DNA of 64,000 nt from Microgenomates group bacterium GW2011_GWC1_46_15 (lineage in GTDB: Bacteria; Patescibacteriota; Microgenomatia; UBA1400; UBA12028): contig LCLX01000003.1 in assembly GCA_001002285.1 (NCBI GenBank), positions 76,915-140,914 on the forward strand. Direction: 5' to 3'. Under the pieces are notes generated by a model. That model did not search any database. It was not told the origin of the DNA and saw only the letters and a program-made list of their open reading frames with translations. This document shows positions 3,737 through 63,357 of this stretch, piece after piece. A program made the translations under genes and the position numbers. The first letter of the stretch is position 1. Every line of letters begins with the position of its first letter.

Positions 3737-3742
3737 ATCTTC

Positions 3743-4318: not shown

Positions 4319-4322
4319 ACTG

Positions 4323-4646: not shown

Positions 4647-4672
4647 GAGCCCCCCTTATTATGTTGATACGA

Positions 4673-4915: not shown

Positions 4916-4986
4916 ACGTATAGTATACTCCCCCCCAGTACCAAGAACTATACACTACACAAAAGGAATGTGTCAAGTTCTGGCGT

Positions 4987-5289: not shown

Positions 5290-5319
5290 TTGTGTCTACT
5301 GTAATAGACATACACACTC

Positions 5320-6096: not shown

Positions 6097-6105
6097 TCCC
6101 CCATC

Positions 6106-7319: not shown

Positions 7320-7323
7320 AGAT

Positions 7324-9928: not shown

Positions 9929-9947
9929 ATACGCATGATACACGAAA

Positions 9948-9961
9948 AGGGTAGGTCGGGT
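9948..9961 (+). promoter_or_regulatory. Recurrent intergenic motif GGGTAGGTCGGGTC, copy A (about -60 relative to the 10013 gene)
   Basis: Identical 14-mer also at 30852-30865. Followed by CCTCYCTTTTTCGTGA-like sequence in both copies, and by a TTGGGG-16-TAGAAT promoter ending 7 nt before the ATG (leaderless). Confidence 0.5.
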
Positions 9962-10012
9962 CTCTAGGCCTAGAATAATTGGGGCCTCTCTTTTTCGTGA
10001 TAGAATCACACC

Positions 10013-10888: not shown

Positions 10889-10899
10889 GTGGCCGCGTG

Positions 10900-12633
10900 T
10901 TATATCGCGCGTAGTTCTTTCACCGTCGTCGCTTGATCCGGTGTTTTGTCATCGCGGAATCGTTCGAGGCGTGGGAATCGCAGTGCTTTTTCTGCCGAGT
11001 GGGTTGGCGAGTTTGTAATTTCGTCTGCAGCAACTTCTACGACGAGCGATGGTTTCATCCACACATCGGGAATCAAGTTTTCGTGAACAAGATACTCTTT
11101 CGGCTGCGACTTGACCGCAAGTTTTTCTGCGCGGGTTTTGAGTTCTTTCCACTGATCATCGCTTAATCCTGTCCCAATTTTTGCAACCGTGCGGATCGTA
11201 TCGCTTTTTTCATCCCGTACGCCAACTAAAAATGCTCCAACACCAAACCCCGTGCGCTTTCCTTGCCCTTTGTAGTACCCCATCACGATACAATCTAACG
11301 TATCGGATAGCTTCCCAACCGCCCCCTCTTCTTCCTTAAACTTCACCCAACTCCACCCGCGGCGCCCCGGCTGATACTCACTGGCATACTGCTTTATAAC
11401 CGCACCTTCTAATCCGGTAGAAAGCTGTTTCGCATGGAACTCACGCAACTCTTTTGGAGAATCCGTAATAATATATGGCGCAAGCACAAACACACTTCCC
11501 CGTTTTATTGTTTGTTCAAGAATTTCTTTGCGCTCGTACAGCGGAATATGCAGCAAGTTTTTTCCGTTTTTATACAAAATATCAAACACAAAAAAGCGCA
11601 ATGGGACACGCGCCGCTGTTTCTTCAATATCATGTTTGCGTTTGCGTTGAATCGTTTGTTGGAACGGCAAAAGCTTGTCTGTTTCGGGATCGTACCCAAC
11701 CGCTTCCGAGTCCAAAATAATCTCATCCGCGTCAATGGCATCAAGCGCCCGATCTGTTGCTAACTCGGGAAACATCCCGCTTGATTCCTCGAGGTTGCGG
11801 GTGAATGTACGAATGTGCCATTCCTTGCCTGATTTCTGTATATGAATAGACACGCGCGTGCCGTCGTACTTGGGTTCAACATAGACTTTGCCCATTTTTT
11901 CAATCATTTCGTCAGCCGTGTGCAGCCGCTGGCAAAGCGCCGGCGCGATGGGAATGCCGAGTTCAATATCAAAAGAATCGAGCCCTTTTTCGCCCTCTGC
12001 CAAAAATACGCGTGCGAACTTACCGATATCCGCCTTCATCTGATACGCCAACTCCAACGGCTTGCGCAACGATTTATCGCCTGTTTTCGCCCACGACAAC
12101 GCGTCCAACAGCGTCATCTGCGAGAACCCAAGACGCAGTGTTCCCAAAAGGATGCGCACGGTGTATTTTGCCGTTAACCCAGAGCTCTTCCGCAAAATTT
12201 CTGCCATGTGCTGAAGTTTGCGCTCTTGGCTTCCCACACCCCCCTCTTTTGCCAAAGCGAGAAGCGCGTTAAACACTTCTAGAATAGAACGTGTGTCTTC
12301 TGCGTGGGTGTGCAAAAGGTGTTCCGCAACATCACCGAGATCGCCGCATGATTTAAACAGTGATAAAACGGATGAAAGACGCTCTTTATTATCGGCCTTC
12401 GTTGAAGCCGTATCAACACACTCTGCCAACACACGCATCACCATTTTTTCCGCAAAGTTAAACTCGAGATTCACGTAGAGCGGGGCCAACCGCCCAAGCA
12501 ACAACCAACACGCGGGTTCAACATCATCGCGCTGAAGTGTGTTGAATAGATCTGCGAGAAGCGCGGTCATCTCCAACCGTGAAGATGTTTTTTCAATTGT
12601 GGAAAGGCGTGTACAAAAATCGTGGAACGTCAT
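10900..12633 (-). CDS. lig: ATP-dependent DNA ligase
   Basis: Adenylation motif I KYDGTR (EPKYDGTRVSIH) and an OB-fold region. Start set at internal MTFHDF to avoid a 158 bp overlap with the PIN gene. Confidence 0.85.
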   Translation of the reverse strand: MTFHDFCTRLSTIEKTSSRLEMTALLADLFNTLQRDDVEPACWLLLGRLAPLYVNLEFNFAEKMVMRVLAECVDTASTKADNKERLSSVLSLFKSCGDLGDVAEHLLHTHAEDTRSILEVFNALLALAKEGGVGSQERKLQHMAEILRKSSGLTAKYTVRILLGTLRLGFSQMTLLDALSWAKTGDKSLRKPLELAYQMKADIGKFARVFLAEGEKGLDSFDIELGIPIAPALCQRLHTADEMIEKMGKVYVEPKYDGTRVSIHIQKSGKEWHIRTFTRNLEESSGMFPELATDRALDAIDADEIILDSEAVGYDPETDKLLPFQQTIQRKRKHDIEETAARVPLRFFVFDILYKNGKNLLHIPLYERKEILEQTIKRGSVFVLAPYIITDSPKELREFHAKQLSTGLEGAVIKQYASEYQPGRRGWSWVKFKEEEGAVGKLSDTLDCIVMGYYKGQGKRTGFGVGAFLVGVRDEKSDTIRTVAKIGTGLSDDQWKELKTRAEKLAVKSQPKEYLVHENLIPDVWMKPSLVVEVAADEITNSPTHSAEKALRFPRLERFRDDKTPDQATTVKELRAI

Positions 12634-13388: not shown

Positions 13389-14513
13389 TTATTCGTTCAG
13401 TATGTACCGCACGCCCTTTGTGACGCCATGCTTGCGGATAATACCCTTCGTGATGAGGTCTTTCACATCGCGCAAAATGGTGTCTGTAGAAATGAGCGGT
13501 AGAGCCTCGTTAGCTTCAGCACTCGTGAGCTCCCCTTTTTGCTGAAGAATTTCTAATAAAATAATTTGACGTTCCGAAAGCGCCACCTGTTTCCCTAACT
13601 TCGACTTCAACTTAATATCCTGCGAAAGTTTTAACACTTGTTGTTTGATGCGGTCCAACTCAACTGCCAAACCGTAGCTAAAGTATTCCAACCAATATGT
13701 TACGTCCTGGTTCTCGCTTTTTTGCACCGAAAGAATTGCGTTGTAGTACCCCTCAATATCCGCATCAAAGTACTCTTCTAGGCTGAAAAATCGCTTGACA
13801 TTGTATCCTTCCGAGTACAGTACAAACATCGCCATCGCACGCGCGGTACGCCCATTTCCCTCGATAAACGGATGGATGCGGACAAGTTCGTAATGCACAA
13901 TACCCGCCCGCAGAACTGGATGAATATCCTGTGCTTCTTGAGAGTTTAGCCACTCAAAAAACTCTTCAATGAACTGTGGGACATCAACGGAAAGCGGTGG
14001 CCTGTATACAACTTCGCCGCTGTCTACACTCCGCACCACAACCTGTTTTGTGCGGTATACGCCAACATTTTCGTCTGGAATGACACGGGAAACGACGAGT
14101 GAATGCAACGCCCGAAGCATATCTTCGGTGTACTCGGGGTGTTTCACTATTTCTTTCCCACGCTCTTTTTTATCTTCCGACATTCCAAGATCCTGCGCGT
14201 CAATCCACTCGAGGACCGCGCGGTAGTTTAAAACCTCTTGAACGTCACGCTCTTTCGCAAACACGCCGGCCTGTTCTGCCGCCTGCTCCGGATCATCACC
14301 TTTTATTTGAACGATTTTCTCCGTTTGTTCTTTTGTGAGCTCATTTCCCTCAAGATGTGTGCCGTGGTGAATAGATCGCACAAGCGCTTCTTGGCGGAAT
14401 TTGGCCTCCCAAGACGGCACGAGCGGTGCGTTATCAATGACTTCTTTGCACGCCTCAATCCGCGAGATGTACTTGAGGAGATTGTTGGAGATGCGGAATG
14501 TTGGTGTGTACAT
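13389..14513 (-). CDS. fic: Fic-family AMPylator
   Basis: Canonical Fic motif HPFIEGNGRTARA. N-terminal Fic_N-like inhibitory segment (GTHLEGNELT). C-terminal wHTH-like tail. Confidence 0.85.
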   Translation of the reverse strand: MYTPTFRISNNLLKYISRIEACKEVIDNAPLVPSWEAKFRQEALVRSIHHGTHLEGNELTKEQTEKIVQIKGDDPEQAAEQAGVFAKERDVQEVLNYRAVLEWIDAQDLGMSEDKKERGKEIVKHPEYTEDMLRALHSLVVSRVIPDENVGVYRTKQVVVRSVDSGEVVYRPPLSVDVPQFIEEFFEWLNSQEAQDIHPVLRAGIVHYELVRIHPFIEGNGRTARAMAMFVLYSEGYNVKRFFSLEEYFDADIEGYYNAILSVQKSENQDVTYWLEYFSYGLAVELDRIKQQVLKLSQDIKLKSKLGKQVALSERQIILLEILQQKGELTSAEANEALPLISTDTILRDVKDLITKGIIRKHGVTKGVRYILNE

Positions 14514-30654: not shown

Positions 30655-30676
30655 GCCTGCGAGAAATCATCTTTTT

Positions 30677-30727
30677 GAGGAACTCAGGGTTCGGGGTCCC
30701 CTGGAGACGAAAAAAGATGATCTCGAG
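30677..30727. repeat. Conserved hairpin-forming intergenic repeat, copy 1 (GAGGAACUCAGGG-N4-GGGUCCYCUGGAGACGAAAA)
   Basis: About 85% identical to 41205-41256. Imperfect inverted repeat CUCAGGG...CCCUgGAG. Lies immediately 3' of the tRNA on the minus strand. Confidence 0.6.
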
Positions 30728-30733
30728 CGTATG

Positions 30734-30806
30734 TGGGAGCGCTTGGATTTGAACCAAGAACCTTGAAGGTATAAGCTTCCTGCGCTAACCGTTGCGCCAC
30801 GCTCCC
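30734..30806 (-). tRNA. tRNA-Ile (anticodon UAU), no encoded CCA
   Basis: Hand-folded cloverleaf. Acceptor GGGAGCG/CGCTCCC, D-arm GCGC-AACGGTTA-GCGC, anticodon arm GGAAG-CTTATAC-CTTCA (U33, UAU, A37), T-arm CTTGG-TTCAAAT-CCAAG, discriminator A73. Confidence 0.75.
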
Positions 30807-30911: not shown

Positions 30912-31193
30912 ATGAATAAAAAAATTCGTACACAAAATATTATTAAAGTCGGGAATAGCCTCGCCGTTACATTGGATAAAGCCTTTGTTGACGCCTACAA
31001 ATTAAAAGCAAAACAGCAGGTTTACATACTTTATACTCAGTATCCCCCGCGAATTATTGTGAAACCCGATTTTTCTCAAGGACCATCACTCACTCAGTCC
31101 GATATAGAAAAATTGCCAAAAGAGTTCCGTAATTGGGTGAAAAAATTCCTCAAGGAAGATCACGAAGCTCTTAAGGCTTTAACACATCTATAG
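30912..31193 (+). CDS. AbrB/MazE-like swapped-hairpin DNA-binding protein (putative)
   Basis: IKVGNSLAVTLDKAFVD motif resembles AbrB/SpoVT-type domains. 93 aa. Confidence 0.4.
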   Translation: MNKKIRTQNIIKVGNSLAVTLDKAFVDAYKLKAKQQVYILYTQYPPRIIVKPDFSQGPSLTQSDIEKLPKEFRNWVKKFLKEDHEALKALTHL

Positions 31194-34703: not shown

Positions 34704-36299
34704 TTATTGCGCGAACAAGCCTCGGAAGACTCTGTAGTACCAGGGAGTCTGCTGGCTTCCTCCTGGAATCGTTCTTGGAACAGGAATGTACCGTATTGGG
34801 TTATACCAGGGTAACGGAGTGGGTGTTGTGACTTGCTTTGTTGTTGGTTTTGATGTTGGTTTCGGTGTCGCACACACTCCGCTGTATGAAACTTTTACTC
34901 CGTTTTGTTCTGCCGTACACGCATTGCTATATGTTCTGCCGTCCGCACCACATACAGGCATGTATTCCTGCGAACATACTCCATTTGTTAATGGTGTGGA
35001 AATCGGTGTTGCGTATGGGTACGGTGTGGCATAAGGGTACGGAGTCGCGTACGGAGGATATGGCGTAGTGTATGGGTACGGTGTGGCATATGGAGGGTAT
35101 GGCGTAGCGTATGGATATGGAGTGGTGTATGGATAAGGTGTTGATAACGGCGGAGGTGTTACAAGAATCGGCGTTGCATACGGACGGGAAGTTGCATACG
35201 GATATGGTGTGACTGGTGGACGAGGAGAAGGACACATAAGTACCGGCTCGCAAGGAGCTTTTATACACGTAACCTGTGCGTAGTAACATCCACTCGATGT
35301 GGGAGTAGCTTTTGATGTTGGAAGAGGGCTCGATATTGGAGTAGGCATTGGGGTAGATTGCGGAGTCGCTCTTGGTGTTGAAATCGGAGTAGCGGATGTT
35401 GTTAACTTCGACAAATCAACCTCAACGACCGTACTAGGGAGAATACCCATCACTTTTTGGCTGACTATTTTTGTACTCATTCTCACTGGAGGAGCTTGAG
35501 TTTTTGGAACCGCGGCAAGATCTGAGGCGGCGTATACCATAACGAGAGGCAATCGGGTGTGCAACGCCACCTGAACAGCCGCATCTTTAGCATTCTTTAC
35601 ACGCCCTTTGAGTGTTACCACATTTTTTACCACTGTTATCCCGTCAAAAGCAAAGAAATCGTACAACGCCCCCTTTGTCATAACAAAACCACTCCCCTTG
35701 TAGACCACGGACTCTGTTGATGGAGGTGATGAGGGTGGAGTCGTTCGTTGTTGCGAAGATGGTGTTTTTCCGTCTTCAACAGCTACCGCTGCGTATACCG
35801 GTTGGACTACACTTATTGGTTTTGTCGTTTCTATCGAGATACTTGCCTCAACGGAAGTAATCGTGATGTTTTTGTTTAGCTGAGACGCCTCCATATACAG
35901 AGCTTGTCCGGTCCCGTATTGGGGAGATGGCTTCTCTGCTTCCGTTATTTCTATTTTTGCGGATTGATCTGCGCTTGCTTGTGATCGATTATCAGTGGGA
36001 ACTTGTAGAAGATCCAGTCCGACAATACCACCAGAAATAATAATGGCCGCGGTTATACCCCCAATCAGATAATTTTTTATAATGTTTGAAGATGGACCAG
36101 TGGTTTTTGGTTGAGGTTCCGGAGTGGGTTCTATAACGGGTTCAACTGGTTGGATTGGTGCTATTTCTGGGGCTGGCGATACTACTGGTGGAGCAGGAAT
36201 TGAAGCATCAACGGGAGACAAAGAGCTCTCGGGTACTAGATGTTGTGGGCTGGAGTTTGGATCTACGGGCACTTGCCCGGAGAGTACTGGATCGTCCAT
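34704..36299 (-). CDS. Type II membrane/surface protein with Pro-rich N-terminus, PYPYATP tandem repeats and a C-terminal Kazal-type domain
   Basis: TM GGITAAIIISGGIVGL after a Pro-rich N-terminus. Repeats (A/T)TPYP(P)Y x about 9. C-terminal CSQEYMPVCGADGRTYSNACTAEQNGVKVSYSGVC fits the Kazal consensus PVCG[SA]DGxTYxNxC...C. Confidence 0.6.
   Translation of the reverse strand: MDDPVLSGQVPVDPNSSPQHLVPESSLSPVDASIPAPPVVSPAPEIAPIQPVEPVIEPTPEPQPKTTGPSSNIIKNYLIGGITAAIIISGGIVGLDLLQVPTDNRSQASADQSAKIEITEAEKPSPQYGTGQALYMEASQLNKNITITSVEASISIETTKPISVVQPVYAAVAVEDGKTPSSQQRTTPPSSPPSTESVVYKGSGFVMTKGALYDFFAFDGITVVKNVVTLKGRVKNAKDAAVQVALHTRLPLVMVYAASDLAAVPKTQAPPVRMSTKIVSQKVMGILPSTVVEVDLSKLTTSATPISTPRATPQSTPMPTPISSPLPTSKATPTSSGCYYAQVTCIKAPCEPVLMCPSPRPPVTPYPYATSRPYATPILVTPPPLSTPYPYTTPYPYATPYPPYATPYPYTTPYPPYATPYPYATPYPYATPISTPLTNGVCSQEYMPVCGADGRTYSNACTAEQNGVKVSYSGVCATPKPTSKPTTKQVTTPTPLPWYNPIRYIPVPRTIPGGSQQTPWYYRVFRGLFAQ
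35000..35260. repeat. Coding tandem repeat (about 24-27 nt units, Tyr/Pro-rich) within the 34704-36299 gene
   Basis: Repeated tatgggtacggtgtggcata / tatggcgtagYgtatgg units are visible in the nucleotide sequence. Confidence 0.7.
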
Positions 36300-37907: not shown

Positions 37908-40244
37908 TTAGAGTTTGCACTTGCTGTACCCACACTGTAGGCAGAGATTGCACCCCTCTTGATTTTGCATGAGCGCGCCGCACTCCGGACACTTTTCTCC
38001 TTCTTCGGGAATATCAAAAACATCTTCACGCAGTACTTCTTGCTTTGTGAGCGTGGAAAAATCCTTTCGCTGCGCAAGCGGTGTAACTCGGTGCTGACTC
38101 TGCATAATTTGATGTGATTTTTTTGGCGTTGAAGCCTCTGCTGGTGAAGGTGCCGCTTGGGTTTGGTGCTGAACAGAAAGAACCTGTGTTGCCTTCGATG
38201 TATCGCGGTACACCGTAATACCTTTGCACCCCAATTTCCAGGCGAGTAGGTAGGCGCCGCGGACATCCTCAAGCGTTGCGTTGGCGGGAAAGTTAATTGT
38301 TTTACTCACCGCATTATCGGTATGATCTTGAAACGCCGCCTGCATGCGCACGTGCCACTGCCAATCAATATCATGCGAGGTAACAAATACGCGTTTGAGC
38401 TCGGATGAAACGATTGTGCTGTGCTGTACTCCACCGGTTTGTGTTACTTCAGCAACAATCGCATTGAACTCACCATTACTCCCGACATGTTCTTTCAACG
38501 CTCGCTCAAAATATTTATTAATGTATGTGAGGCCAGCGGTGTCAACAACATTCTTTACGTAACTCAGCGCAAAAATCGGCTCGATGCCACTGCTACAGTC
38601 CGCCGCCATTGAAATTGTTCCCGTTGGTGCAATTGTTGTAATTGCGACGTTGCGGAACTTGCGCGGTTTCTTTTTGTGTCCATAGGTATGTGTAACCGGA
38701 TCATATCCTTTGGCAAACCAACTGTTTTTCCATTGTGGAAACGCGCCTTTTTCTTTTGCCAATTTTTCCGAAGCGCTCCACGATGATTCTTGTACGTGTT
38801 TCATGATTTTCTTTGCTAAAGCAACGCCTTCATCGGAGTTATATGGAATGTTGAGTTGAAGCAGAAGGTCGGCCCAACCCATTACACCCAACCCAATCCG
38901 CCGGTGTTGGTGCACGGTTTTTGTGATTTGCGGAAGAGGGTATGTGCACGCGTCAATCACGTTGTCTAACATACGAGTCGCGATCGCGGTAACAGTGGCT
39001 AAACGGTCCCAGTTTATGGTGGTGTGACCTGTTTTTTCGTCTTTTAGTGCAAATGCAGAAAGATTGATTGATCCGAGGTTACACGAATCAAATGAGTGCA
39101 AAGGTTGTTCGCCACAGGGATTAGTCGCATAAATCGGCCCAACAGAGTCTAACAATGGGTTGTTGCGGTTGATCACATCCCAGTAAATCATCCCAGGATC
39201 CCCCGTTCTCCACGCAAGCGATATGATCTGATCCATCAACATACGCGCCAAAATATTTTGGACTGGTTTGTTGGTACGCGGATTCACGAGTGCAAACTCT
39301 TTATCTTTTTCCACAGCACGCATAAACGCATCCGTTGTCCCAACCGAAATGTTGAAGTTGCTAATCTCCCCCTCTTCACTCTTGCACGTAATGAACTCCA
39401 AAATGTCCGGGTGATGAACGGTTAAAATACCCATGTTGGCACCGCGTTGTTTCCCACCCTGCATAACTTGGCGCGTTGCAATGTCAAACACTTTCATGAA
39501 TGAAACCGGGCCTGTAGCAAAACCGCCGGAAGATTTTGTAATCCCATCGCCTTTGGGGCGTAAGCGTGAAAAATCAAAACCCGTCCCACCACCTTTTTGA
39601 TGCACAAGTGCCGTCCACTTCACCGCATCAAAAATACCTTCCATACTGTCTTCAACTGGAAGGACAAAGCAACTTGCAAGCTGATTTTGTGGTGTTCCCG
39701 CGTTATTGAGTGTACGACCACCAGGCAGAAATTCAAATTTTGTCATGACGTCATAAAATTTTTCTTCCCAGATTTTCTTGTGCTTTTTTTCTACAGTGGC
39801 AAGTGTGTGGGCAACACGGCGGAACATTTGGCCGGGAGTTTCCATCGGCTTTCCATCCTGATCGTGAACAAGATACCGCCGTTCAATGACTTTGAGCTGA
39901 TTGATATTGAGATTGAGATCATTCTCTACTCCAATAACGGTCTCCGCTTTGCGGATTTTGGCATGTTCAGCGCGATACAAAATGTATGCTTTTGCGGTCT
40001 TAAAATGGCCAGCGGCCATGAGCACTTGCTCAACCGTATCCTGCACTTGTTCAACGGTAACCAGTTCTTTGCGGACAACAATCACTTTTTCGATAATGCC
40101 CGCGGCGATTCCCGCTAACCGTTGTGCTTCTTTGTCATCAAACTCGCCCGTTGCAATTGCTGCTTTGTGAAGCGCCAACGCGATTTTAACTTTTTCAAAC
40201 GGCATTTCGCGCCCATCGCGCTTAACGATTGTCATGGAGCTCAC
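37908..40244 (-). CDS. nrdJ: Class II (adenosylcobalamin-dependent) ribonucleotide reductase, paralog 1
   Basis: ATP-cone-like N-terminus. Radical-site loop TNPCGEQPL. C-terminal CxxC...CxxC zinc ribbon (CPECG...CLQCGYSKC). Confidence 0.85.
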   Translation of the reverse strand: MSSMTIVKRDGREMPFEKVKIALALHKAAIATGEFDDKEAQRLAGIAAGIIEKVIVVRKELVTVEQVQDTVEQVLMAAGHFKTAKAYILYRAEHAKIRKAETVIGVENDLNLNINQLKVIERRYLVHDQDGKPMETPGQMFRRVAHTLATVEKKHKKIWEEKFYDVMTKFEFLPGGRTLNNAGTPQNQLASCFVLPVEDSMEGIFDAVKWTALVHQKGGGTGFDFSRLRPKGDGITKSSGGFATGPVSFMKVFDIATRQVMQGGKQRGANMGILTVHHPDILEFITCKSEEGEISNFNISVGTTDAFMRAVEKDKEFALVNPRTNKPVQNILARMLMDQIISLAWRTGDPGMIYWDVINRNNPLLDSVGPIYATNPCGEQPLHSFDSCNLGSINLSAFALKDEKTGHTTINWDRLATVTAIATRMLDNVIDACTYPLPQITKTVHQHRRIGLGVMGWADLLLQLNIPYNSDEGVALAKKIMKHVQESSWSASEKLAKEKGAFPQWKNSWFAKGYDPVTHTYGHKKKPRKFRNVAITTIAPTGTISMAADCSSGIEPIFALSYVKNVVDTAGLTYINKYFERALKEHVGSNGEFNAIVAEVTQTGGVQHSTIVSSELKRVFVTSHDIDWQWHVRMQAAFQDHTDNAVSKTINFPANATLEDVRGAYLLAWKLGCKGITVYRDTSKATQVLSVQHQTQAAPSPAEASTPKKSHQIMQSQHRVTPLAQRKDFSTLTKQEVLREDVFDIPEEGEKCPECGALMQNQEGCNLCLQCGYSKCKL

Positions 40245-40663
40245 TTCTCTTCCTCCGGAGTGTAAAGCGGATGTCCCCCACGGGTTGCCGCTTTGATTTT
40301 GTAGTACGCACGGTCTTTTTCCTCTTTTGTAAGGTTGGGATGAAAAATTTCTTCCGGATACTTGACCGCATTCTTTGCCATCTTACGTTCAAACGCTTCC
40401 GCCATATCTATGCCAAGTTTCTGACCCAAATTGGCAAGCCACCACAATACATCGCTCATTTCCTCGCCAATCGCTTCTTTAATGCGCTGATTTTTTTCAA
40501 CATCTTCTCCTTTGAGCCATTGGAAATGTTCGAGAAGTTCGGCACTCTCCAACACCAAAGAAAGCGCGAGGTCTTTTGGATCTTCTTTTGTCCATCCGCG
40601 TTTTTTGCGGAACTTTTCAATAAGCTCTTTAACTTGGGCGATTGTTGTTGTTTGGTCAGTCAT
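40241..40663 (-). CDS. mazG: MazG-family nucleoside triphosphate pyrophosphohydrolase
   Basis: MazG EExxE/ELLEHF-type helical motifs (SLVLESAELLEHFQW). 4 bp overlap with nrdJ. Confidence 0.7.
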   Translation of the reverse strand: MTDQTTTIAQVKELIEKFRKKRGWTKEDPKDLALSLVLESAELLEHFQWLKGEDVEKNQRIKEAIGEEMSDVLWWLANLGQKLGIDMAEAFERKMAKNAVKYPEEIFHPNLTKEEKDRAYYKIKAATRGGHPLYTPEEEK

Positions 40664-40674
40664 TGTTCTCCTTT

Positions 40675-41163
40675 TTACACTGTTTTTACGTATTCATCAA
40701 TGACTTTCTTGTGATCGAATGCAATTTTTTCTGGGAGTTTATCGAAGGAAAACCACTGAATATCTTCGATCTCTTCGTCTTGCTTCTTAAGTTCTCCACT
40801 CAATCCTGTGGCAATAAAACAGTGCCCGATATTTTGGCGGCCATCAAAGTCTCTGTATATATCATCATTCAATCGGAAAAATATCATTGTTTTTGCGCGT
40901 AAACCAGTTTCTTCAAAAAGTTCCCGAGTTGCAGTTGCCGCAAGAGTTTCATCCCAATCAACATAACCACCAGGTAAAGCCCACCACCCCTTTTGCGGGT
41001 CAAGTCCACGCTTTACCATAAGAATACAACCTTGCGCATCCTGGGTAATGATTTCAACGGTACTATTTCTTACATTAAACCGCGCGCAATGTTCACAGAA
41101 CTCTCCCTTTGGAATTTTTCCCGTCGGGTAGTCTTTCCAGGTAGCGTGTGTTAAATCAGCCAT
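40675..41163 (-). CDS. NUDIX hydrolase with N-terminal Zn-ribbon-like segment
   Basis: Nudix box GGYVDWDETLAATATRELFEETG. Confidence 0.75.
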   Translation of the reverse strand: MADLTHATWKDYPTGKIPKGEFCEHCARFNVRNSTVEIITQDAQGCILMVKRGLDPQKGWWALPGGYVDWDETLAATATRELFEETGLRAKTMIFFRLNDDIYRDFDGRQNIGHCFIATGLSGELKKQDEEIEDIQWFSFDKLPEKIAFDHKKVIDEYVKTV

Positions 41164-41204
41164 AATATGTGTCTGTAATACCTAGATAAGATAAAAATTT
41201 CTTC

Positions 41205-41256
41205 GAGGAACTCAGGGCGCAGGGTCCTCTGGAGACGAAAAGAGATTTTTATCGAG
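41205..41256. repeat. Conserved hairpin-forming intergenic repeat, copy 2
   Basis: GAGGAACTCAGGGCGCAGGGTCCTCTGGAGACGAAAAGAG, about 85% identical to 30677-30727. Lies immediately 3' of nrdJ paralog 2 and 5' of the Nudix gene. Confidence 0.6.
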
Positions 41257-43500
41257 CTACATCGTGCACTTACTCCACCCGCAGTCCGGACAGCTTACAC
41301 ACCCACTTTCAAACTTCAATGAGGCAGAGGCACACTCGGGGCAGATTTGTTTTTCTCCTGATGCTGGCTTCGTTGTATGTGTGTGTATATCCGAACGCAT
41401 TGTGGCATCCTTTGAGAGTTTGCTTTCCTTCCCCGCTACATTGAGCACTTGATCCATTTTACTGCCGTCGCGGTAGATCGTAATGCCTTTAAGCCCAAGT
41501 TTCCATCCAAGCATGTACGCTTTCTTCACGTCTTCAACCGTTGCGTTGTGTGGAAAGTTGATCGTTTTACTTACTGAGTTATCAATCCACTTTTGCCACA
41601 CCGCTTGAATTTTGACGTGCCACTCGGGAGAAATATTGTGCGTGGTTGCAAATACACGCTTCGCTTCTTTGCTTAATTCTTTGACATGTTCTACGCCACC
41701 GTCCTGTAAAACTTGCTGCATAATGCGGTTACGTGTGACTTCATCAAAATTTTGCTGAAGATACTCACCAAACACTGGATCGGCGATGGTAAATTCCCGA
41801 GTCGGTGCGTTTGCATGATTATCCTCATTAAAACTGCGGCGCACTTGGACAAGTGAAAATACCGGCTCAATACCAGAACTTGTATTTGCTAACAACGAAA
41901 TTGTTCCCGTTGGGGCAACCATCATCACCGCACAGTTGCGATATCGTTCAGAAGTTCCAGCATACACCGAAACATCAAAATTGGGGAATGGGCCACGAAT
42001 TTTTCCAAGCTCCAGTGAAGCCTCTTCTGCTTTCTTCCGGATGAATTTTGCGAGATGGTCAGCAACGCGCACAGCTTCTTCACTGTTATATGGAACCCTC
42101 ATTCGATATAGTATGTGCGCAAAACCCATCACTCCTAAACCGATACGTCGGTTTCCGTCTTTCACCATCTGCCTGATTTCATCCAACGCATACGTGTTCA
42201 CTTCAATCATGTCATCCAAGAAACGGACACCAAGCTTGACCGATTTTTCGAGATCGTCCCAATCAATTTCCCAATCGCCTTTTTTGTTTTTGACAAGGTG
42301 GCGGTTGAGATCGATTGATGTTAGATTACACGATTCATAGGGCAATAATCCAATTTCTCCACAGGGATTCGTTGCATCCATAATCCCAATTGACGGGGTT
42401 GGATTGTCTTCCTGAAGACGGTCTAAAAACGCCAAACCCGGATCGCCGGTGGCCCACGCGTGTTCTGCAATCAGCTCAAAAATCTCCCTTGCCTTTATGG
42501 TCTTCCACACTTCGCCATTGCGGGGATTAAGTAAATCCCATTCTTTGTTTGCCTGCACGGCCTCCATGAACTTGTTGGACACTCCAACCGAAATATTGAA
42601 GTTTTTAATCGTGCCATCCTGATCTTTCAGTGTAATGAAATCAACAATATCGGGATGATCTGCATTCAAAATCGCGATGTTTGCCCCTTGCCGCTTTGCT
42701 CCCTGTAAAATTTGAGCAAGCGCGGCAGAAAATGCTCTCAAAAAGTCTACCGGCCCGGATGCTGCTTTCGGAATATTTTTGACTTTGTCTCCGTGCGGTC
42801 GGATTCTCGAAAAATTAAATCCTGTTCCGCCATTGTTTTTATGCACAACCGCGGCATCACCAAGTGTTTTAAAAATCTTTTGGATACTGTCTTCTATCGG
42901 CAGAACGAAACAACTGGATAACTGACCTGTTCCTCCGGGATTTCCCGCTTCAAACATCGCTTTGCCCGCGCACACAAACTTTAAGTTCGCCATGCGCTCG
43001 TAGAACTTCCTGGCTGTTTCATCAACAATACCGTTCTCCCCCCACTGAATTTCTGCCTTCGCCATGTGGCGGGCAACACGCCACAACATTTCGCCCGGTG
43101 TTTCAACAACTTTCCCGTTCATGTCGGTGCGGAGGTAGCGTTTTTTTGCAATTTCGTGCGCGGTATCGGTTAAATTCGGCTCAGTAATAGCAAGTTTTTT
43201 GTGTTTCTGTTGTTTTTTCTCACCGTACAAAATGTAGTACTTCGCGGTTGCAAAGTATCCCGCTTCGGCAATGGTTGGCTCAACAATGTCGCGGATTTGT
43301 TGAACGGTAAGCGTGTTTTCTTTTACTACCGCACGCGCGAGTTTCACTTGAACTTTTTTTGTGATTTCAGTAGCAATTTTTTTATCGTACTCCCCCGTAT
43401 CTTTTCCAGCAGCCTCAATAGACGCGGTGATCTTCTCCAGAGTAAAAGGCTTCTTTGTGCCATCCCGTTTGATGACAAACTGTATTGATGACGTTTGCAT
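41257..43500 (-). CDS. nrdJ: Class II (adenosylcobalamin-dependent) ribonucleotide reductase, paralog 2
   Basis: TNPCGEIGLLPYESCNL radical loop. ATP-cone-like N-terminus. C-terminal Zn ribbon. Confidence 0.85.
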   Translation of the reverse strand: MQTSSIQFVIKRDGTKKPFTLEKITASIEAAGKDTGEYDKKIATEITKKVQVKLARAVVKENTLTVQQIRDIVEPTIAEAGYFATAKYYILYGEKKQQKHKKLAITEPNLTDTAHEIAKKRYLRTDMNGKVVETPGEMLWRVARHMAKAEIQWGENGIVDETARKFYERMANLKFVCAGKAMFEAGNPGGTGQLSSCFVLPIEDSIQKIFKTLGDAAVVHKNNGGTGFNFSRIRPHGDKVKNIPKAASGPVDFLRAFSAALAQILQGAKRQGANIAILNADHPDIVDFITLKDQDGTIKNFNISVGVSNKFMEAVQANKEWDLLNPRNGEVWKTIKAREIFELIAEHAWATGDPGLAFLDRLQEDNPTPSIGIMDATNPCGEIGLLPYESCNLTSIDLNRHLVKNKKGDWEIDWDDLEKSVKLGVRFLDDMIEVNTYALDEIRQMVKDGNRRIGLGVMGFAHILYRMRVPYNSEEAVRVADHLAKFIRKKAEEASLELGKIRGPFPNFDVSVYAGTSERYRNCAVMMVAPTGTISLLANTSSGIEPVFSLVQVRRSFNEDNHANAPTREFTIADPVFGEYLQQNFDEVTRNRIMQQVLQDGGVEHVKELSKEAKRVFATTHNISPEWHVKIQAVWQKWIDNSVSKTINFPHNATVEDVKKAYMLGWKLGLKGITIYRDGSKMDQVLNVAGKESKLSKDATMRSDIHTHTTKPASGEKQICPECASASLKFESGCVSCPDCGWSKCTM

Positions 43501-43520
43501 AGATTTCTCGATTCTACCGA

Positions 43521-45599
43521 CTACACACTACATTTGCTATACGCACAATTGGGACACGTGAAACACCCTTCTTGAATAACAAGCGTTGTTCCACATTCCG
43601 GACACGCTTCTTCACCCGGCGCTACTTTAACCAACGGTGCGCCCACAAACGCTTCATTAGCAAATGTTTTTCCTTCTTTCTCGCGCTTCTTCTTTGTCTC
43701 ACCCGTTTCCAACACAACCTTATTACGGCTCCCCGTCACATACACTGTCATTCCCTTGAGTCCAAGCTTCCAGCCTTTGAAGTACGCCTTCCACACTTCC
43801 TCTTCTGTGGCATCGGCAGAAAAGTTAATCGTTTTTGAGATCGCGTTGTCTACAAACCGCTGGAGCGCTGCTTCCATTTCAACGTGTTCATCAACCGGCA
43901 CATCGCCCGAAACCACATACACATTGCGGATCTCTTTTGGCACCTCGTCTATGTCTTGACATGTCCCATGCTGCCGGACTTTTTCAAAAATATTCTCTTG
44001 CTGAGATTGACTCACGCCCGCGCGTTCGAGCGCCTCTTTAAATAATCCACTTTCGTAGTACAACTCACGGAAGTCCTGTCCAATTTTTTCCGCACCCTCG
44101 TGTGTGCGCATCACATAACTCAACGCAAACGCCGGCTCGCATCCATATCCTTCCAGACCGGAAATTGTTGCGATGGCACCCGTTGGTTGGATTGTGTTTT
44201 GGCAACTATTCCGTACGCCAATTTTTCTAATATCGGCCTCTAGTGATTTCCAGTCCAACTTTGGCATGTTAAATCTATGTTTGTACGGGTACAAAGACTT
44301 TGGGGGGCTCCACACTTCAATGTTTTTCGTTTTTAATACCGCAGCGTTCTGTGGACTGTAATCATATCTACTCCCTTTGATTCCAGGAAACGCGCCGCGC
44401 TCCTGCGCGAGTTGATTCGACGCGCGCAACGTATGGTACCGGATAAACTCCATGATCTGTCCCGCACAATCAATGCCTTTTCTGCTCCCATACCGCGTAC
44501 CGATTTTGTACAACACATCCGCCAAACCCATAATGGATACGCCAATGCGCCGGTTGTGTTTCGCAGCCTCTTCTAATTGAGGAACAGCCGATACATATTT
44601 ATTCGTATCTACAACGTCATCAAGCCACCGCACCGTCCATTCAACCGTTTCGCGGAGTTTTTCCCAATCAACGCTATATGCAAAAATACCTTTTTTCCCG
44701 TTTTTCACGTGTTCCGCCAAGTTAATCGAGGCCATACAGCAGTTTTCGAAAGGCAATAAAAATTGTTCGCCGCATGGGTTTGTCGCTTCCAAATCTCCCT
44801 GCGCCGGCGTTGGATTTTCTCGGTTTGCGGCATCCAAAAACAACACTCCTGGTTCGCCGTTGTGATGCGCGAACTTTACAATTTCTACAAACAACTCCCG
44901 CGCTTTTACTTTTTTCCATACTCCGCCATTTCGTGGATTAATCAACGGAAAATCTGTATTTTTCTCTACCGCGCGCATGAATGCATCGGTAATACCAACC
45001 GAGATATTAAAGTGTTCAATCACGCCTTCTTTTTCTTTGCAGTGAATAAAATCGTAAATATCCGGATGATGGACCGGTAAAACTGCCATACACGCCGACC
45101 GCCTTCCTCCACCCTGCCCAATCACCCAAAACGCGGTGTCATATACTTTCAAAAATGAAACTACGCCCGTTGCTTTGCCCTTGGACGAACCAATTGAGTC
45201 CCCCTTAGGACGGATCCGGCCAAATGAAAATCCTACTCCTCCGCCGGACTGTAAAATCAAAACGGCATTGCGTAGCGTGCTAAAAATCCCATCCTGAGCA
45301 CGGCCCATATCATCATCAATCGGGAGAACGAAACAGTTCGCGAGCTGGCCCCACCCAGTTCCCGCGTTGGCCAGTGTGCGGCCGTTGGGCATAAACCGGA
45401 ACTCACTCAACAACGACACAAACATCTTCTCGACTTTTTCTGGAGTCGTTCCATCGCGGTACGCGTGTTCTGCCTGCGCGACAACGTGGGCACACCGCGC
45501 CAAGATGTCTTCAACTTTTTCCGTTGGCTTGCCGGAGTCATCCCGCAGGGCATACCTGTTGATCATGACTTCTTGCGCGTTTGGTGTTAGTTTTTTCAT
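43521..45599 (-). CDS. nrdJ: Class II (adenosylcobalamin-dependent) ribonucleotide reductase, paralog 3
   Basis: TNPCGEQFLLPFENCCMASINL radical loop. C-terminal CPECG...CPNCAYSKC Zn ribbon. Confidence 0.85.
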   Translation of the reverse strand: MKKLTPNAQEVMINRYALRDDSGKPTEKVEDILARCAHVVAQAEHAYRDGTTPEKVEKMFVSLLSEFRFMPNGRTLANAGTGWGQLANCFVLPIDDDMGRAQDGIFSTLRNAVLILQSGGGVGFSFGRIRPKGDSIGSSKGKATGVVSFLKVYDTAFWVIGQGGGRRSACMAVLPVHHPDIYDFIHCKEKEGVIEHFNISVGITDAFMRAVEKNTDFPLINPRNGGVWKKVKARELFVEIVKFAHHNGEPGVLFLDAANRENPTPAQGDLEATNPCGEQFLLPFENCCMASINLAEHVKNGKKGIFAYSVDWEKLRETVEWTVRWLDDVVDTNKYVSAVPQLEEAAKHNRRIGVSIMGLADVLYKIGTRYGSRKGIDCAGQIMEFIRYHTLRASNQLAQERGAFPGIKGSRYDYSPQNAAVLKTKNIEVWSPPKSLYPYKHRFNMPKLDWKSLEADIRKIGVRNSCQNTIQPTGAIATISGLEGYGCEPAFALSYVMRTHEGAEKIGQDFRELYYESGLFKEALERAGVSQSQQENIFEKVRQHGTCQDIDEVPKEIRNVYVVSGDVPVDEHVEMEAALQRFVDNAISKTINFSADATEEEVWKAYFKGWKLGLKGMTVYVTGSRNKVVLETGETKKKREKEGKTFANEAFVGAPLVKVAPGEEACPECGTTLVIQEGCFTCPNCAYSKCSV

Positions 45600-46060
45600 T
45601 ATTTTTTCTGTTCATCAATCAGTTTGTGTATTTCCGCACGGAAATCTTCAATGGTTTGGAAATCCCGGTACACGCTCGCGAACAACATATACGAAACGGG
45701 ATCTATTTTACGCAAACGGTTCATCACAAGTTTGCCAATCTCCCAGCTCTTGACTTCCGTTGAGTCTTTTACCCGCAGTTTTTGCTCAATTCCGTCAATA
45801 AGGGCTTCAATTTCTTCCATGGAAATCGGCCGTTTCCACGTGGCTTTCATCAGGCCTTTTTTTACTTTTTCCCGGTCAAATGGCTCCCGCTCTCCATTTT
45901 TCTTGATGACAAAGAGGTCAATCCCCTCGGCCCGTTCATATGTTGTAAACCGTTTGCCACATTTTGTGCATTGGCGGCGGCGGCGCATACTCCGCTGGTC
46001 CGACCCAATGCGGCTTTCCAAAACAGAGGTCTCATCGTGTGTGCAGTATGGACATCGCAT
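45599..46060 (-). CDS. nrdR: Transcriptional repressor NrdR
   Basis: N-terminal Zn ribbon MRCPYCTHDETSVLESR...CTKCGKRFTTYE plus an ATP-cone. Start at MRCPYC. Confidence 0.9.
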   Translation of the reverse strand: MRCPYCTHDETSVLESRIGSDQRSMRRRRQCTKCGKRFTTYERAEGIDLFVIKKNGEREPFDREKVKKGLMKATWKRPISMEEIEALIDGIEQKLRVKDSTEVKSWEIGKLVMNRLRKIDPVSYMLFASVYRDFQTIEDFRAEIHKLIDEQKK

Positions 46061-46124
46061 ACGTGTTGCAGTCGCGGACGACATGCTCCAATAAACTAAA
46101 TCTAGTAGGCAGGGGTTCAGTGAA

Positions 46125-46170
46125 ACACTATTCGTAGTGTTGGTCAACATATCACACACTATCTGAATGT
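46125..46170. promoter_or_regulatory. Tandem NrdR boxes upstream of nrdR-nrdJ operon
   Basis: 16 bp palindrome ACACTATTCGTAGTGT (46125-46140) matches the NrdR-box consensus acaCwAtATaTwGtgt. A second degenerate box cACACTATCTGAATGT lies about 30 bp downstream (46155-46170). Confidence 0.55.
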
Positions 46171-48185: not shown

Positions 48186-50558
48186 TTGTACTACGCGGAA
48201 AAACTCTCTTCTATGGACAAAATATTGATCGCGACGCGTCTCCGCAAAAAAATCCGCCCCATTGTTGCCCGTTTTCGAAAAATCATGCGGGGAAAGTATC
48301 GTATACACATTTTAGTTGGTTTTACCTTTATTGTTATTGCGCTTATTGGCGCCATCGTGTTCCGCGACCTCCCTTCTCCAACAAAACTCAAAAATAATCA
48401 GATATTTTCGATTAGTTCAAAAATATATGATCGCAACGGCGCGCTACTGTATGAGATTTACGAGGATAAAAACAGAACGCCGATTGTATTGAAAGATCTT
48501 CCACCGTATGTATACCAGGCTTCTATTGCAATTGAAGACCAGAATTTTTACAAACACATCGGGTTTGACGTATGGGGTATGTTCCGCGCCGCGCTCAACA
48601 CCGTATTCCGGCAAAAACTACAAGGTGGTTCAACGATTACACAACAGTTAGTTAAAACAACGCTATTAGACCGCCAAAGAACACTTACGCGGAAGGCAAA
48701 AGAGGCGGTTCTTACGGTTGCAAGTGAAGTCATTTACTCAAAACAAGACATTTTGGAAATGTATATGAATAATATTCCATACGGTGGCACCGCGTGGGGT
48801 ATTGAAGCGGCAGCACACACCTACTTTGATACAGACGCGCGCAACCTTTCGCTCGCCCAAGCAGCGTTGCTCGCCGGCTTGCCACAGTCACCCACCAGAT
48901 ACTCGCCGTTTGGAACAAATCCGCAGCTCGCAAAAGACCGCCAGCTTCAAGTCCTCCGCCGCATGGCAGAAGACAAATATATTACACAAGAACAAGCAGA
49001 TAAAGCGGGACAGGAGCCACTTGTGTATGCCATTTCAAAAACAAATATTAACGCTCCACACTTTGTCATGTATGTCCGCGATCAACTCGTGAATACGTAC
49101 GGTGAAACGGTGGTAGCGCGTGGTGGACTGCGGGTATATACAACGCTCGATCTTTCCTTGCACCAAGACGCGCAAGCTTCGCTTTCTGCCGAACTGACCA
49201 GATTGGACAAACGGAAATATAAAGTTGGAAACGGCGCGGCGCTCGTCACCTCTCCAAAGACCGGTGAAATTTTAGCAATGATTGGATCTCGCGATTTTTT
49301 TGATGCGACACACGACGGCCAAGTGAACATCACGTTGCGCGAACGCCAACCAGGAAGTTCAATTAAGCCGATTAATGTTGTAACTGGATTCCAGTTAAAA
49401 AAACTCACCCCCGGGACAATGATTCTTGATATTCCGACATGTTTTCTCGTGGGAGGCCAAGCGCAATACTGTCCAAAAAACTATGACGGAGTTGCGCACG
49501 GACCCGTACAAACGCGTTTCTTCCTTGGGAACTCATACAACATTCCTGAAATAAAGGTCATTTCCATGAACACGCTGGAAAGCGTTGTCGCAACCGCCTC
49601 TGCCATGGGCATCACAACATGGAAAGACCCGTCAAACTACGGGCTTTCTCTTGCGTTGGGCGGTGGTGAGGTGAAGATGGTGGACATGGCTGTGGCATTT
49701 GGAACGCTCGCGAACGAAGGAATAAAAGTTCCACTCCACTCTATTTTGAGGGTTGAGGATTTCCAAGGAAACGTGCTGGAACAGTACAAACCAGAAGAGA
49801 CCGTGGCGGTGGTTGATACCTTAACAGATCATCCTGATACCCCGAGTCTTGGAGAGGCGACCCGCGTTCTTGACCGGCAGCCAGCCTATCTTGTTTCGCA
49901 CATTTTATTGGATAACAGCGCGCGCGTTGGAGCGTTTGGTCCGTCTTCTGAACTGGTCATCCGCAACCAAGTTGTGAGCGCAAAAACTGGGACAACAAAC
50001 GATCTGCGGGATAACTGGACGATTGGGTACACGCCGGACTATGTGACAACGGTGTGGGTAGGAAATAATGACAACACACCAATGAACCAGGCACTTGTTT
50101 CTGGAATTACCGGTGCCGCACCAATCTGGAATGATATTATGTCGCGCGTGTTACGAGGGAAAAAACCAGTGTGGCCGGCACTTCCGCCAGACATTATAAG
50201 TAAAGAAATTTGTACCGTGTCCGGCCTTCTTCCTAACCCTGACGCGCAGTGTTCAACCCGTACCGAATTCTTTTGGAAAGGAACCGAGCCCACCACAATT
50301 GAAAATGTTTTCCGTGATACATGGATCGTTTCTACAACAGGTCTTCCACCAAAGGAGGGCGATCCCACAGATAATCTTGTCCTAGAGCGCCGCACACTTC
50401 TCTCCGATCCATTTACACATGATTTCTGCTTGGACTGCGTGCGACCAGTTGATGATAAAGGGAAAGTGGTGTATGAACAGCACATTGTTGATGTACAAAA
50501 ATACTATGCAGGATATGACGAACGACCCATCATTACCCCACCACCCAAACAACAATAA
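48186..50558 (+). CDS. Class A penicillin-binding protein (glycosyltransferase GT51 + transpeptidase)
   Basis: GT51 motifs EDQNFYKHIGFD, GGSTITQQL. Transpeptidase SSIKP, SAKTG(T). Confidence 0.85.
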   Translation: MYYAEKLSSMDKILIATRLRKKIRPIVARFRKIMRGKYRIHILVGFTFIVIALIGAIVFRDLPSPTKLKNNQIFSISSKIYDRNGALLYEIYEDKNRTPIVLKDLPPYVYQASIAIEDQNFYKHIGFDVWGMFRAALNTVFRQKLQGGSTITQQLVKTTLLDRQRTLTRKAKEAVLTVASEVIYSKQDILEMYMNNIPYGGTAWGIEAAAHTYFDTDARNLSLAQAALLAGLPQSPTRYSPFGTNPQLAKDRQLQVLRRMAEDKYITQEQADKAGQEPLVYAISKTNINAPHFVMYVRDQLVNTYGETVVARGGLRVYTTLDLSLHQDAQASLSAELTRLDKRKYKVGNGAALVTSPKTGEILAMIGSRDFFDATHDGQVNITLRERQPGSSIKPINVVTGFQLKKLTPGTMILDIPTCFLVGGQAQYCPKNYDGVAHGPVQTRFFLGNSYNIPEIKVISMNTLESVVATASAMGITTWKDPSNYGLSLALGGGEVKMVDMAVAFGTLANEGIKVPLHSILRVEDFQGNVLEQYKPEETVAVVDTLTDHPDTPSLGEATRVLDRQPAYLVSHILLDNSARVGAFGPSSELVIRNQVVSAKTGTTNDLRDNWTIGYTPDYVTTVWVGNNDNTPMNQALVSGITGAAPIWNDIMSRVLRGKKPVWPALPPDIISKEICTVSGLLPNPDAQCSTRTEFFWKGTEPTTIENVFRDTWIVSTTGLPPKEGDPTDNLVLERRTLLSDPFTHDFCLDCVRPVDDKGKVVYEQHIVDVQKYYAGYDERPIITPPPKQQ

Positions 50559-63346: not shown

Positions 63347-63357
63347 ACAAAAAAGAC

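Follow-up and report, generated by a model that had tools for sequence, protein, structure and literature searches.

A covarying hairpin family at gene junctions of Candidatus Pacebacteria, a possible RNA processing or stability site

Introduction

The RNase III hairpins (the early-mRNA sites R0.3-R1.3 of phage T7, the rRNA spacer stems and those of the rpsO-pnp type) are irregular helices of about two turns, broken by internal loops, that lie between cistrons or in rRNA precursors in the orientation of transcription and are partly conserved among the sites of one genome. After cleavage, the residual hairpin stabilises the upstream RNA. The REP, BIME and REPIN elements of Enterobacteria and Pseudomonas are short extragenic palindromes located past stop codons or within operons. 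They are transcribed and vary between strains, and REPs stabilise the upstream mRNA or modulate the upstream gene when they lie within ~15 nt of its stop codon. The attC sites of integrons are imperfect hairpins with internal unpaired spacers that start on or overlap the stop codon of the ORF before them, at positions where the genes vary. The cis-regulatory motifs collected in Rfam include small hairpins found by comparative analysis of intergenic regions.

The hairpin described here resembles each of these in the respects just listed, cleavage and stabilisation being only proposed in its case. It is unlike the RNase III hairpins in having a conserved 9-nt loop, N-ACCC-NNNN, and pyrimidine-rich internal loops, neither of which is known to be required there, and in being dispensable in close relatives. 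Unlike the Rfam motifs, it is not recognised by any family of Rfam release 15, none of which scores at either copy in the window, permissive thresholds included. A literature search on structured RNAs and REP-like elements of the CPR also returned nothing relevant. The family, absent from Rfam and from the literature searched, looks like a familiar kind of element and not like a new kind of system. The organisms that carry it belong to the CPR (Patescibacteria), which are uncultured and about whose RNA processing almost nothing is known.

Results and Discussion

Two copies of a hairpin in the window

The window is the whole stretch of DNA that was analysed, 64,000 nucleotides long. A sequence-only reading had noticed in it an element of about 50 nt, present twice at about 85% identity. 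A degenerate 40-nt pattern matched the window exactly twice, at 30677-30716 (one mismatch) and at 41205-41244 (none), both on the plus strand, and two matches were obtained in none of 100 dinucleotide-preserving shuffles of the window. A repeat finder run on the window aligned the pair over 50 nt at 84% identity, in good agreement with the original description. The length, however, had been underestimated: the hairpin measures about 70 nt, and only its centre had been noticed while the covarying outer stem was missed.

Each copy is an imperfect hairpin of 68-70 nt on the minus strand (Table 1), in which a 33-nt conserved core is enclosed by an AU-rich stem, P1, of 14-15 positions. The sequence of P1 is unlike between the two copies and its complementarity is retained: GAGAUCAUCUUUUU pairs with AAAAAGAUGAUUUC in copy 1 and GAUAAAAAUCUCUUUU pairs with GAAGAAAUUUUUAUC in copy 2. 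The sense strand reads GC-UC-GAGAUCAUCUUUUU-UCGU-CUCCAGGG-GACCCCGAA-CCCUGAG-UUCCUC-AAAAAGAUGAUUUC-UC-GC in copy 1 and GAUAAAAAUCUCUUUU-CGUCUCCAGAGGACCCUGCGCCCUGAGUUCCUC-GAAGAAAUUUUUAUC in copy 2. The cognate arm duplex of copy 1 has a predicted energy of -18.1 kcal/mol, and in the core of copy 2 an alternative pairing, GAGGA/UCCUC, is intact. No third copy was found in the window by the covariance model with its filters off, the next-best hit scoring 13.5 bits (E = 1.2).

Table 1. Coordinates of the two window copies, their parts and the genes directly upstream
Feature	Position in window	Strand	Details
tRNA-Ile, anticodon UAU, directly upstream of copy 1	30733-30806	-	no CCA encoded
Copy 1, full hairpin	30659..30728	-	covariance model 84.5 bits, E = 1e-18; fold -26.4 kcal/mol
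Copy 1, 5' side	30711..30728	-	clamp GC 30727-30728; UC loop 30725-30726; P1 5' arm GAGAUCAUCUUUUU 30711-30724
Copy 1, whole core; details of its 5' part	30677..30710	-	J5' UCGU; P2/P3 CUC-C-AGGG 30699-30706
Copy 1, same core; details of its apex and 3' part		-	9-nt loop GACCCCGAA 30690-30698; CCCU-GAG 30683-30689; J3' UUCCUC 30677-30682
Copy 1, 3' side	30659..30676	-	P1 3' arm AAAAAGAUGAUUUC 30663-30676; UC loop 30661-30662; clamp GC 30659-30660
Class II (B12-dependent) ribonucleotide reductase paralog 2 (nrdJ2), directly upstream of copy 2	41257..43500	-	747 aa
Copy 2, full hairpin	41190..41257	-	covariance model 73.5 bits, E = 1e-15
Copy 2, P1 5' arm	41238..41253	-	GAUAAAAAU-C-UCUUUU; cognate duplex -11.2 kcal/mol
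Copy 2, core	41205..41237	-	CGUCUCCAGAGGACCCUGCGCCCUGAGUUCCUC; P3 CAGAG/CCCUG with one A.C mismatch
Copy 2, P1 3' arm	41190..41204	-	GAAGA-A-AUUUUUAUC

The window is part of the chromosome of a CPR bacterium (Candidatus Pacebacteria) and not of a phage. Its genes are ordinary chromosomal ones (LepA, MurJ, peptidyl-tRNA hydrolase, an ATP-dependent DNA ligase, transketolase, a RecF-like ATPase and penicillin-binding proteins), megablast (13 kb) found no match to window DNA in the phage collection, and the window RNR protein is less than 40% identical to phage proteins. An identical Nudix protein is encoded in the groundwater MAGs GCA_001001445.1, GCA_003525295.1 and GCA_003524785.1, which are labelled Candidatus Pacebacteria (CPR/Patescibacteria), and identical copies of the element are found on eight contigs of the same species.

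Copy 1 starts 4-5 nt past the 3' end of a tRNA-Ile gene whose anticodon, UAU, is unusual for bacteria, and finishes 4 nt ahead of the ATG of a 68-aa ORF of no family (start 30654, minus strand). The first base of copy 2 is the last base of the nrdJ2 stop codon, UAG, and the copy finishes 26 nt ahead of the ATG of a Nudix gene (41163, minus strand). The initial description had placed the copies directly after tRNA-Ile and nrdJ paralog 2 and ahead of the 68-aa ORF and the Nudix gene, and these gene ends and starts, all on the minus strand, were confirmed. The operon around copy 2 (37908-46159, minus strand) is led by NrdR and encodes three class II (B12-dependent) RNR paralogs, Nudix, MazG and Maf, with a CobA-type adenosyltransferase nearby. 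In relatives (L010, L014, L031 and L035), different RNR paralogs carry inteins bearing LAGLIDADG domains, with products of 1100-1160 aa.

Further copies in related organisms

An absence of further copies had been named beforehand as a sign against a conserved element. Four diverged copies were found elsewhere, on the metagenome contigs L009, L015, L017 and L033. The family set counts six distinct copies, found in some four or five organisms; three of the copies represent one orthologous nrdJ2 site. The contig L009, from a JGI metagenome, holds the one true copy retrieved by the metagenome pattern scan; it has the window core type, CGUCUCCAGGGGACCCUGCACCCUGAGUUCCUC, on a third, unrelated P1 (GAUUGAUUUCUUUUU / AAAAAGAAAUAAUC). 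In the contigs L015 and L017 the Nudix protein shares 62-63% identity with that of the window, and the L015 nrdJ2 protein is 81% identical. Both contigs carry a second core type directly 3' of the nrdJ2 stop codon, which falls within P1. The L017 element reads GUUAUGAUAUUUUUGC-UC-CAC-GA-CAGGG-GACCCUACA-CCCUG-A-GUG-UC-GCAAAAAUAUCAUAAC, where P1 is a perfect 16 bp, and L015 differs from this type by two C-to-U changes. A third, G+C-richer core type occupies the same nrdJ2 site in L033 (nrdJ2 81% identical), where the element reads CUGUC-UC-ACAUC-G-CAGGG-CACCCCUCG-CCCUG-GA-GAUGU-UC-GACAG. At the nrdJ2 site of L035 there is a long hairpin whose sequence no longer matches (14 bits). A hairpin at the nrdJ2 stop codon may be selected independently of this specific repeat family.

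Broader searches indicated a narrow distribution. Two strict patterns had no match in viral contigs; a looser one gave a single chance match there and nine in 185,579 species genomes, none of these with stems and none in the CPR. The apex-only pattern hit 40 viral loci, none of which had a full-length match to the model, and nothing meaningful came from a BLAST search of phages and plasmids with the element as query. Beyond the orthologous site, no copies were present in ~170 kb of related Pacebacteria contigs.

A shared apex on covarying stems

Across the copies, the element is an irregular hairpin of 68-80 nt with 21-27 predicted pairs. Its base has an optional 2-bp GC clamp and a UC/UC internal loop (window copy 1, L017 and L033), followed in all six copies by P1, which is 13-16 positions long and free in sequence. 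Above P1 lies an internal loop, either UC/UC or, in the window type, CGU(C)/UUCCUC, and then P2, which changes with lineage and keeps its pairing (CAC/GUG in L017, CAU/GUG with a G.U pair in L015, ACAUC/GAUGU in L033 and CUC/GAG in the window type). P3 is conserved (YAGRG/CCCUG) and closes a 9-nt apical loop in which ACCC is always present, and the apical hairpin YAGRG-N-ACCC-NNNN-CCCUG is common to all six copies. This 19-nt apex is 68-95% identical among the six. The arms, outside their inner six bases, are 0-58% identical in 29 of the 30 pairwise comparisons, the sole exception being the 3' arms of L015 and L017 (83%). Between the two window copies, the outer arms are 33% identical and the apex 79%.

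Arms nevertheless match their own partners. Over the six copies, arm duplexes average -14.3 kcal/mol when cognate versus -4.7 kcal/mol when non-cognate, and only one of the 720 permutations of an arm-swap test, the true assignment, reaches the observed total. This test is independent of the alignment fitted to the model and of its register. In that alignment (model R1), which understates pairing through register problems in P1 and overstates it by being fitted to the model, 83% of the cells form standard pairs, and shifting the partners by 1-3 columns lowers this to 35-53%; seven pairs have changed on both sides. The covariation score of 0.303, versus 0.167 +/- 0.03 after shuffling, was reached by none of 500 shuffles. 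A lack of compensatory changes had also been proposed as grounds for discarding the element; P1 and P2 covary across copies. The claim of a conserved structured element is thus borne out by six copies, covarying stems and a shared apex, and the hairpins form a genuine family of RNA type that is conserved, covaries and has a narrow distribution in Pacebacteria.

The unpaired core bases CGUCUCC, UUCCUC and GACCC do not differ among three copies with unrelated stems, which speaks for recognition of the sequence itself and against a recent duplication. In the window type, an alternative sense pairing, GRGGA/UCCUC, is preserved by a G.U to A-U change. As it cannot form in the L015, L017 and L033 types, we keep it as a possible alternative conformer.

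A conserved core that includes predicted unpaired bases and is closed by a covarying P1 has the usual look of an aptamer, as in ligand-sensing riboswitches, or of a small self-cleaving ribozyme, and ribozymes also occur in patchy, multi-copy fashion. That the element is a new class of either kind is nonetheless extremely doubtful. At gathering thresholds, the 4227 covariance models of Rfam 15, among them hammerhead, twister, pistol, hatchet, HDV-like and all riboswitch classes, detected only tRNA and a group I intron in the whole window, and local scans around both copies at E <= 10 gave nothing relevant. Within the reach of the models, this rules out the ribozyme and riboswitch classes described to date. 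The junctions differ by core type (CGUCUCC/UUCCUC versus UC/UC), few unpaired bases beyond ACCC are universal, and the hairpin is essentially unbranched. A riboswitch is further disfavoured by a constitutively stable P1, by the lack of an expression platform and by downstream genes that are mutually unrelated (the 68-aa ORF, Nudix, a 299-aa ORF and 23S rRNA).

Some specific identities were also considered and rejected. Hammerhead (CUGANGA/GAAA), twister and pistol motifs and, on the plus strand, preQ1-I-like ones were dismissed by eye against their consensus sequences, in agreement with the Rfam result. Mimicry of rRNA, for example of the sarcin-ricin loop "GAGAGGACC", was dropped when local alignment of the cores with the rRNA operon of L009 scored no higher than that of shuffled sequences; the single 11-nt core match in that comparison is an ordinary terminator-like hairpin.

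Strand and transcription

The fold first proposed had been read on the plus strand. All flanking genes lie on the minus strand, so the sense RNA is the reverse complement, and the C-to-U change that had been taken to preserve pairing as a G-U wobble is a G-to-A change in the sense strand, giving an A.C mismatch in that helix. The antisense folds as stably as the sense strand or more so; thermodynamics therefore does not decide the strand. Orientation and wobble pairs are more informative. The six copies are all co-oriented with their flanking genes, and the loci behind tRNA-Ile, tRNA-Ala and nrdJ2 are of three independent kinds. Where L015 differs from L017 by C-to-U, both changes face G in either plausible scheme and yield G.U pairs in the sense strand and A.C in the antisense. 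The G-to-A change of copy 2 also favours the sense strand in that it preserves the alternative pairing GRGGA/UCCUC. Against the sense strand, the same change is A.C in the sense P3 and would be G.U in the antisense. In total, six wobbles are compatible with the sense strand only versus two with the antisense only, a tally that is suggestive, but not conclusive, of the sense strand as the functional RNA strand.

The clearest transcriptional context is that of L009, where the order is 16S rRNA, tRNA-Ile(GAU), tRNA-Ala(UGC), element, boxA-like GCUCCUUAACAA, 23S rRNA, group I intron and 5S rRNA, with the element starting at the first base past tRNA-Ala. Being inside an rRNA operon, this copy is certainly transcribed and cannot be an efficient terminator. 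Copy 2 also lies inside an operon, whose genes, in relatives, overlap or sit a few to a dozen bases apart. All copies are 0-8 nt from the end of the upstream gene.

A stable stem-loop directly past gene ends could be expected of a transcription terminator or attenuator of the upstream gene. Intrinsic terminators consist of a G+C-rich stem-loop with a U-tract directly after it, and the genome has canonical ones, such as GACCGCCCGAAAGGGCGGUUUU at window positions 63352-63373, after an intron-containing tRNA. The element has no U-tract after its stem on either strand (its 3' flanks are UUUCUCGCAGG, UUAUCUAGG, UCACUUAUG and AACUCGCU) and is not called by the terminator scan; moreover, one copy sits upstream of 23S rRNA within an rRNA operon and copy 2 between operon genes. 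A terminating or attenuating role is thus highly improbable. The sequence-only reading had correctly stated that the element is neither a canonical intrinsic terminator nor an SD, but its suggestion of an attenuator found no support.

Turnover among close relatives

Comparison with relatives showed the element to be a discrete unit whose gain, loss or replacement takes place within short evolutionary times. It is dispensable, as close relatives do well without it at the same junctions. It is missing from the nrdJ2 junction of L010, L014, L016, L031, L076 and L028. As far as the nrdJ2 stop codon, L028 and the window are 93% identical in their DNA, and from the Nudix start they are again 89% identical; in between, the window has 98 nt (element and leader) versus 867 nt in L028, where an unrelated 267-aa ORF is found. 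A different unrelated ORF, of 299 aa, fills the slot in L031 and L033, with the element in L033 and none in L031. At the other locus, the orthologous tRNA-Ile(UAU) of L076 is followed one base on by a small ORF and by no element. As BLASTP gave no alignment between this small ORF and the 68-aa ORF of the window, L076 does not count as a clean "empty site."

The position behind nrdJ2 is a hotspot where both genes and the element turn over between very close relatives. The ORFs found in inter-cistronic slots of the RNR operon (L028 12293-13096, 267 aa; L031 13445-14344 and L033 8391-9290, 299 aa; L010 6916-7746, 276 aa) were mutually unrelated in the three pairs compared (267 with 299 aa, 299 with 276 aa). 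None has a Pfam or NCBIfam family, and the L031 ORF has a weak match to MMADHC (cobalamin trafficking; E = 0.004). Core types at the orthologous nrdJ2 site differ by genome, and the two window copies and L009 share one type. The pattern points to one of two causes, gene conversion between copies or the co-evolution of the core with a trans-acting factor by which it is read.

The element had been described as a possible small mobile repeat. The patchy presence and absence among close relatives lends this partial support. In its fullest form, this main rival explanation holds that the element is a selfish REP- or MITE-like DNA repeat, a small non-autonomous palindrome that spreads into intergenic junctions, or reaches them by gene conversion, and is tolerated there with no function for the host. 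Its hairpin would then serve mobilisation, through recognition of hairpins in single-stranded DNA, and not an RNA function; we consider this explanation unlikely. It would account for the absences from nrdJ2 junctions, including that of L028 with its 93% identical flanks, and from behind the orthologous tRNA-Ile(UAU) in L076, for nearly identical cores at unrelated loci of one genome, and for the equal folding of both strands. The stem arms, however, which are the part that a transposase would recognise, differ between copies, and the interior alone is conserved. REPs show the opposite, with conserved stems and variable loops, and the arms of the two window copies are not conserved within their genome as those of REPs and REPINs are. 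REPs occur in hundreds of copies together with a RAYT transposase; within the 64 kb of the window there are 2 copies, and no transposase, RAYT, Y1 transposase or integrase was found among the ~45 window ORFs scanned. The lack of copies beyond the orthologous site in related contigs points the same way, as does the uniform orientation with transcription. Regarding MITEs, there are no conserved termini and no duplicated target in comparison with L028, L031 and L076, and compared to L028 the change is a replacement and not a clean insertion.

The variable slot after nrdJ2 also raises the question of a DNA recombination or cassette-junction site used for swapping unrelated genes in the RNR operon, for which integron attC sites and the stem-loop cassettes of T4-type phages are loose analogues. 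The different contents of the slot (the 267-aa ORF in L028, the 299-aa ORF in L031 and L033, and none in the window) would fit such a site, as would the co-occurrence of element and 299-aa ORF in L033 and the attC-like start at or over the stop codon. On the other hand, the attC core sites R''/R' (RYYYAAC / GTTRRRY) are missing, the hairpin base being GCUCGA... / ...CUCGC instead; the apex is conserved here, versus the base in attC; and no integrase was found in the window. The L031 contig has the 299-aa ORF without any element, and the copies behind tRNA genes, including the one inside an rRNA operon, do not mark cassette junctions. We therefore regard a cassette site as very unlikely.

A proposed processing or stability site as the best explanation

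Among the three functions offered by the sequence-only reading, a 3'-end processing or stability element is the best fit. We tentatively favor a model of a cis-acting RNA hairpin, carried on polycistronic transcripts, that serves as a processing or stability site and is probably recognised by a trans factor. From the features above we infer that the element acts as RNA, that its core is read by this factor and that the outcome is processing or stabilisation. The element would be transcribed within multi-gene precursors, namely those of tRNA-Ile with the small ORF, of the nrdJ2-Nudix-MazG-nrdJ3 operon and of the 16S-tRNA-tRNA-23S unit of a second organism. Once folded, its helix of ~25 bp could form a recognition and cleavage site, or a barrier, between two co-transcribed RNAs. 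The actor might be an RNase III-type double-strand-specific endonuclease or a lineage-specific RNA-binding protein that reads the bases of the apex and internal loops. The hairpin halves left on the products could then shield the new 3' and 5' ends from exonucleases, and the fates of the upstream RNA (tRNA or nrdJ2 message) and the downstream RNA would be uncoupled.

Several properties are those of an RNase III site. The 21-27 predicted pairs of the element make an irregular double-stranded RNA with internal loops that exceeds the ~20 bp expected of such a site, and it lies in the sense orientation between co-transcribed RNAs, at tRNA-Ile/ORF, nrdJ2/Nudix or 299-aa ORF, and tRNA-Ala/23S junctions. 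Both its helix length and its internal loops resemble known RNase III intercistronic sites. Since RNase III itself needs no conserved apical loop, the choice of this enzyme is a guess. With about one copy per 32 kb, the copy number is also too low for a general processing signal. The presence of one core type at the unlinked window copies and of others at orthologous nrdJ2 sites fits co-evolution with a genome-specific factor.

A bolder version, which we consider distinctly unlikely, is that the hairpin is the site of a dedicated Pacebacteria RNA-processing or RNA-binding protein that co-evolves with its sites. Such a protein would explain why a core is shared within one genome while other types are found at the orthologous nrdJ2 site elsewhere. 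If true, the way in which these CPR bacteria, with their reduced genomes, cut their tRNA-mRNA, operon and rRNA precursors would be defined by this system, and hairpin and protein would be a previously undescribed pair of processing signal and enzyme. A covarying hairpin that marks tRNA-mRNA, operon and rRNA junctions is a concrete handle, traceable in metatranscriptomes, for finding its factor. Should it prove to be no more than a REP-like passenger, the element would have little import beyond annotation.

Other features of the window and related contigs

Hairpins were seen at nrdJ2 stop codons in two further contigs. In L035 (12657-12735), a hairpin of 9 bp + 6 bp + 4 bp overlaps the stop codon, and in L034 (2968-2990) the overlapping hairpin is UACCAU-GUGAGA-AUGGUA.

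The L009 rRNA operon (3371-11445, minus strand) is of the CPR type, with ~1.4 kb separating tRNA-Ile from tRNA-Ala. A fragment of a group II intron (D1-D4) lies between 16S and tRNA-Ile and a group I intron between 23S and 5S, and the boxA-like sequence (8262-8273) has its own small hairpin ahead. In L076 (20880-21190), the start codon of the 78-aa ORF is one base past the 3' end of tRNA-Ile(UAU), which implies a tRNA-mRNA co-transcript and a leaderless mRNA after tRNA 3' processing. A Fic gene and a MazE-like gene lie together in the same contig, adjoining this tRNA. In the window, a 93-aa ORF with a weak MazE/AbrB-like match (30912-31193, plus strand) is found beside tRNA-Ile(UAU), and a Fic/DOC-HTH protein is encoded at 13389-14513 (minus strand).

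A group I intron at 63071-63345 (plus strand; Rfam match 63089-63300, 62.8 bits) apparently interrupts a tRNA gene of the window, with GCGGGGUAGUGUACGGCUGCACGUGAGGCU... as the 5' half and ...CAAGGUUCGACUCCUUGCCCCGCA as the 3' half; ARAGORN gave no call for this tRNA. A 531-aa ORF with a Kazal-type inhibitor domain (34704-36299, minus strand) includes, at 35005-35219, seven diverged 32-nt units with spacings of 18 and 39 nt. Two paralogous genes of class A penicillin-binding proteins (48186-50558 and 51865-54255, plus strand), 3853 nt apart and with stretches of 76-82% identity, flank a GH18 glycosidase gene.
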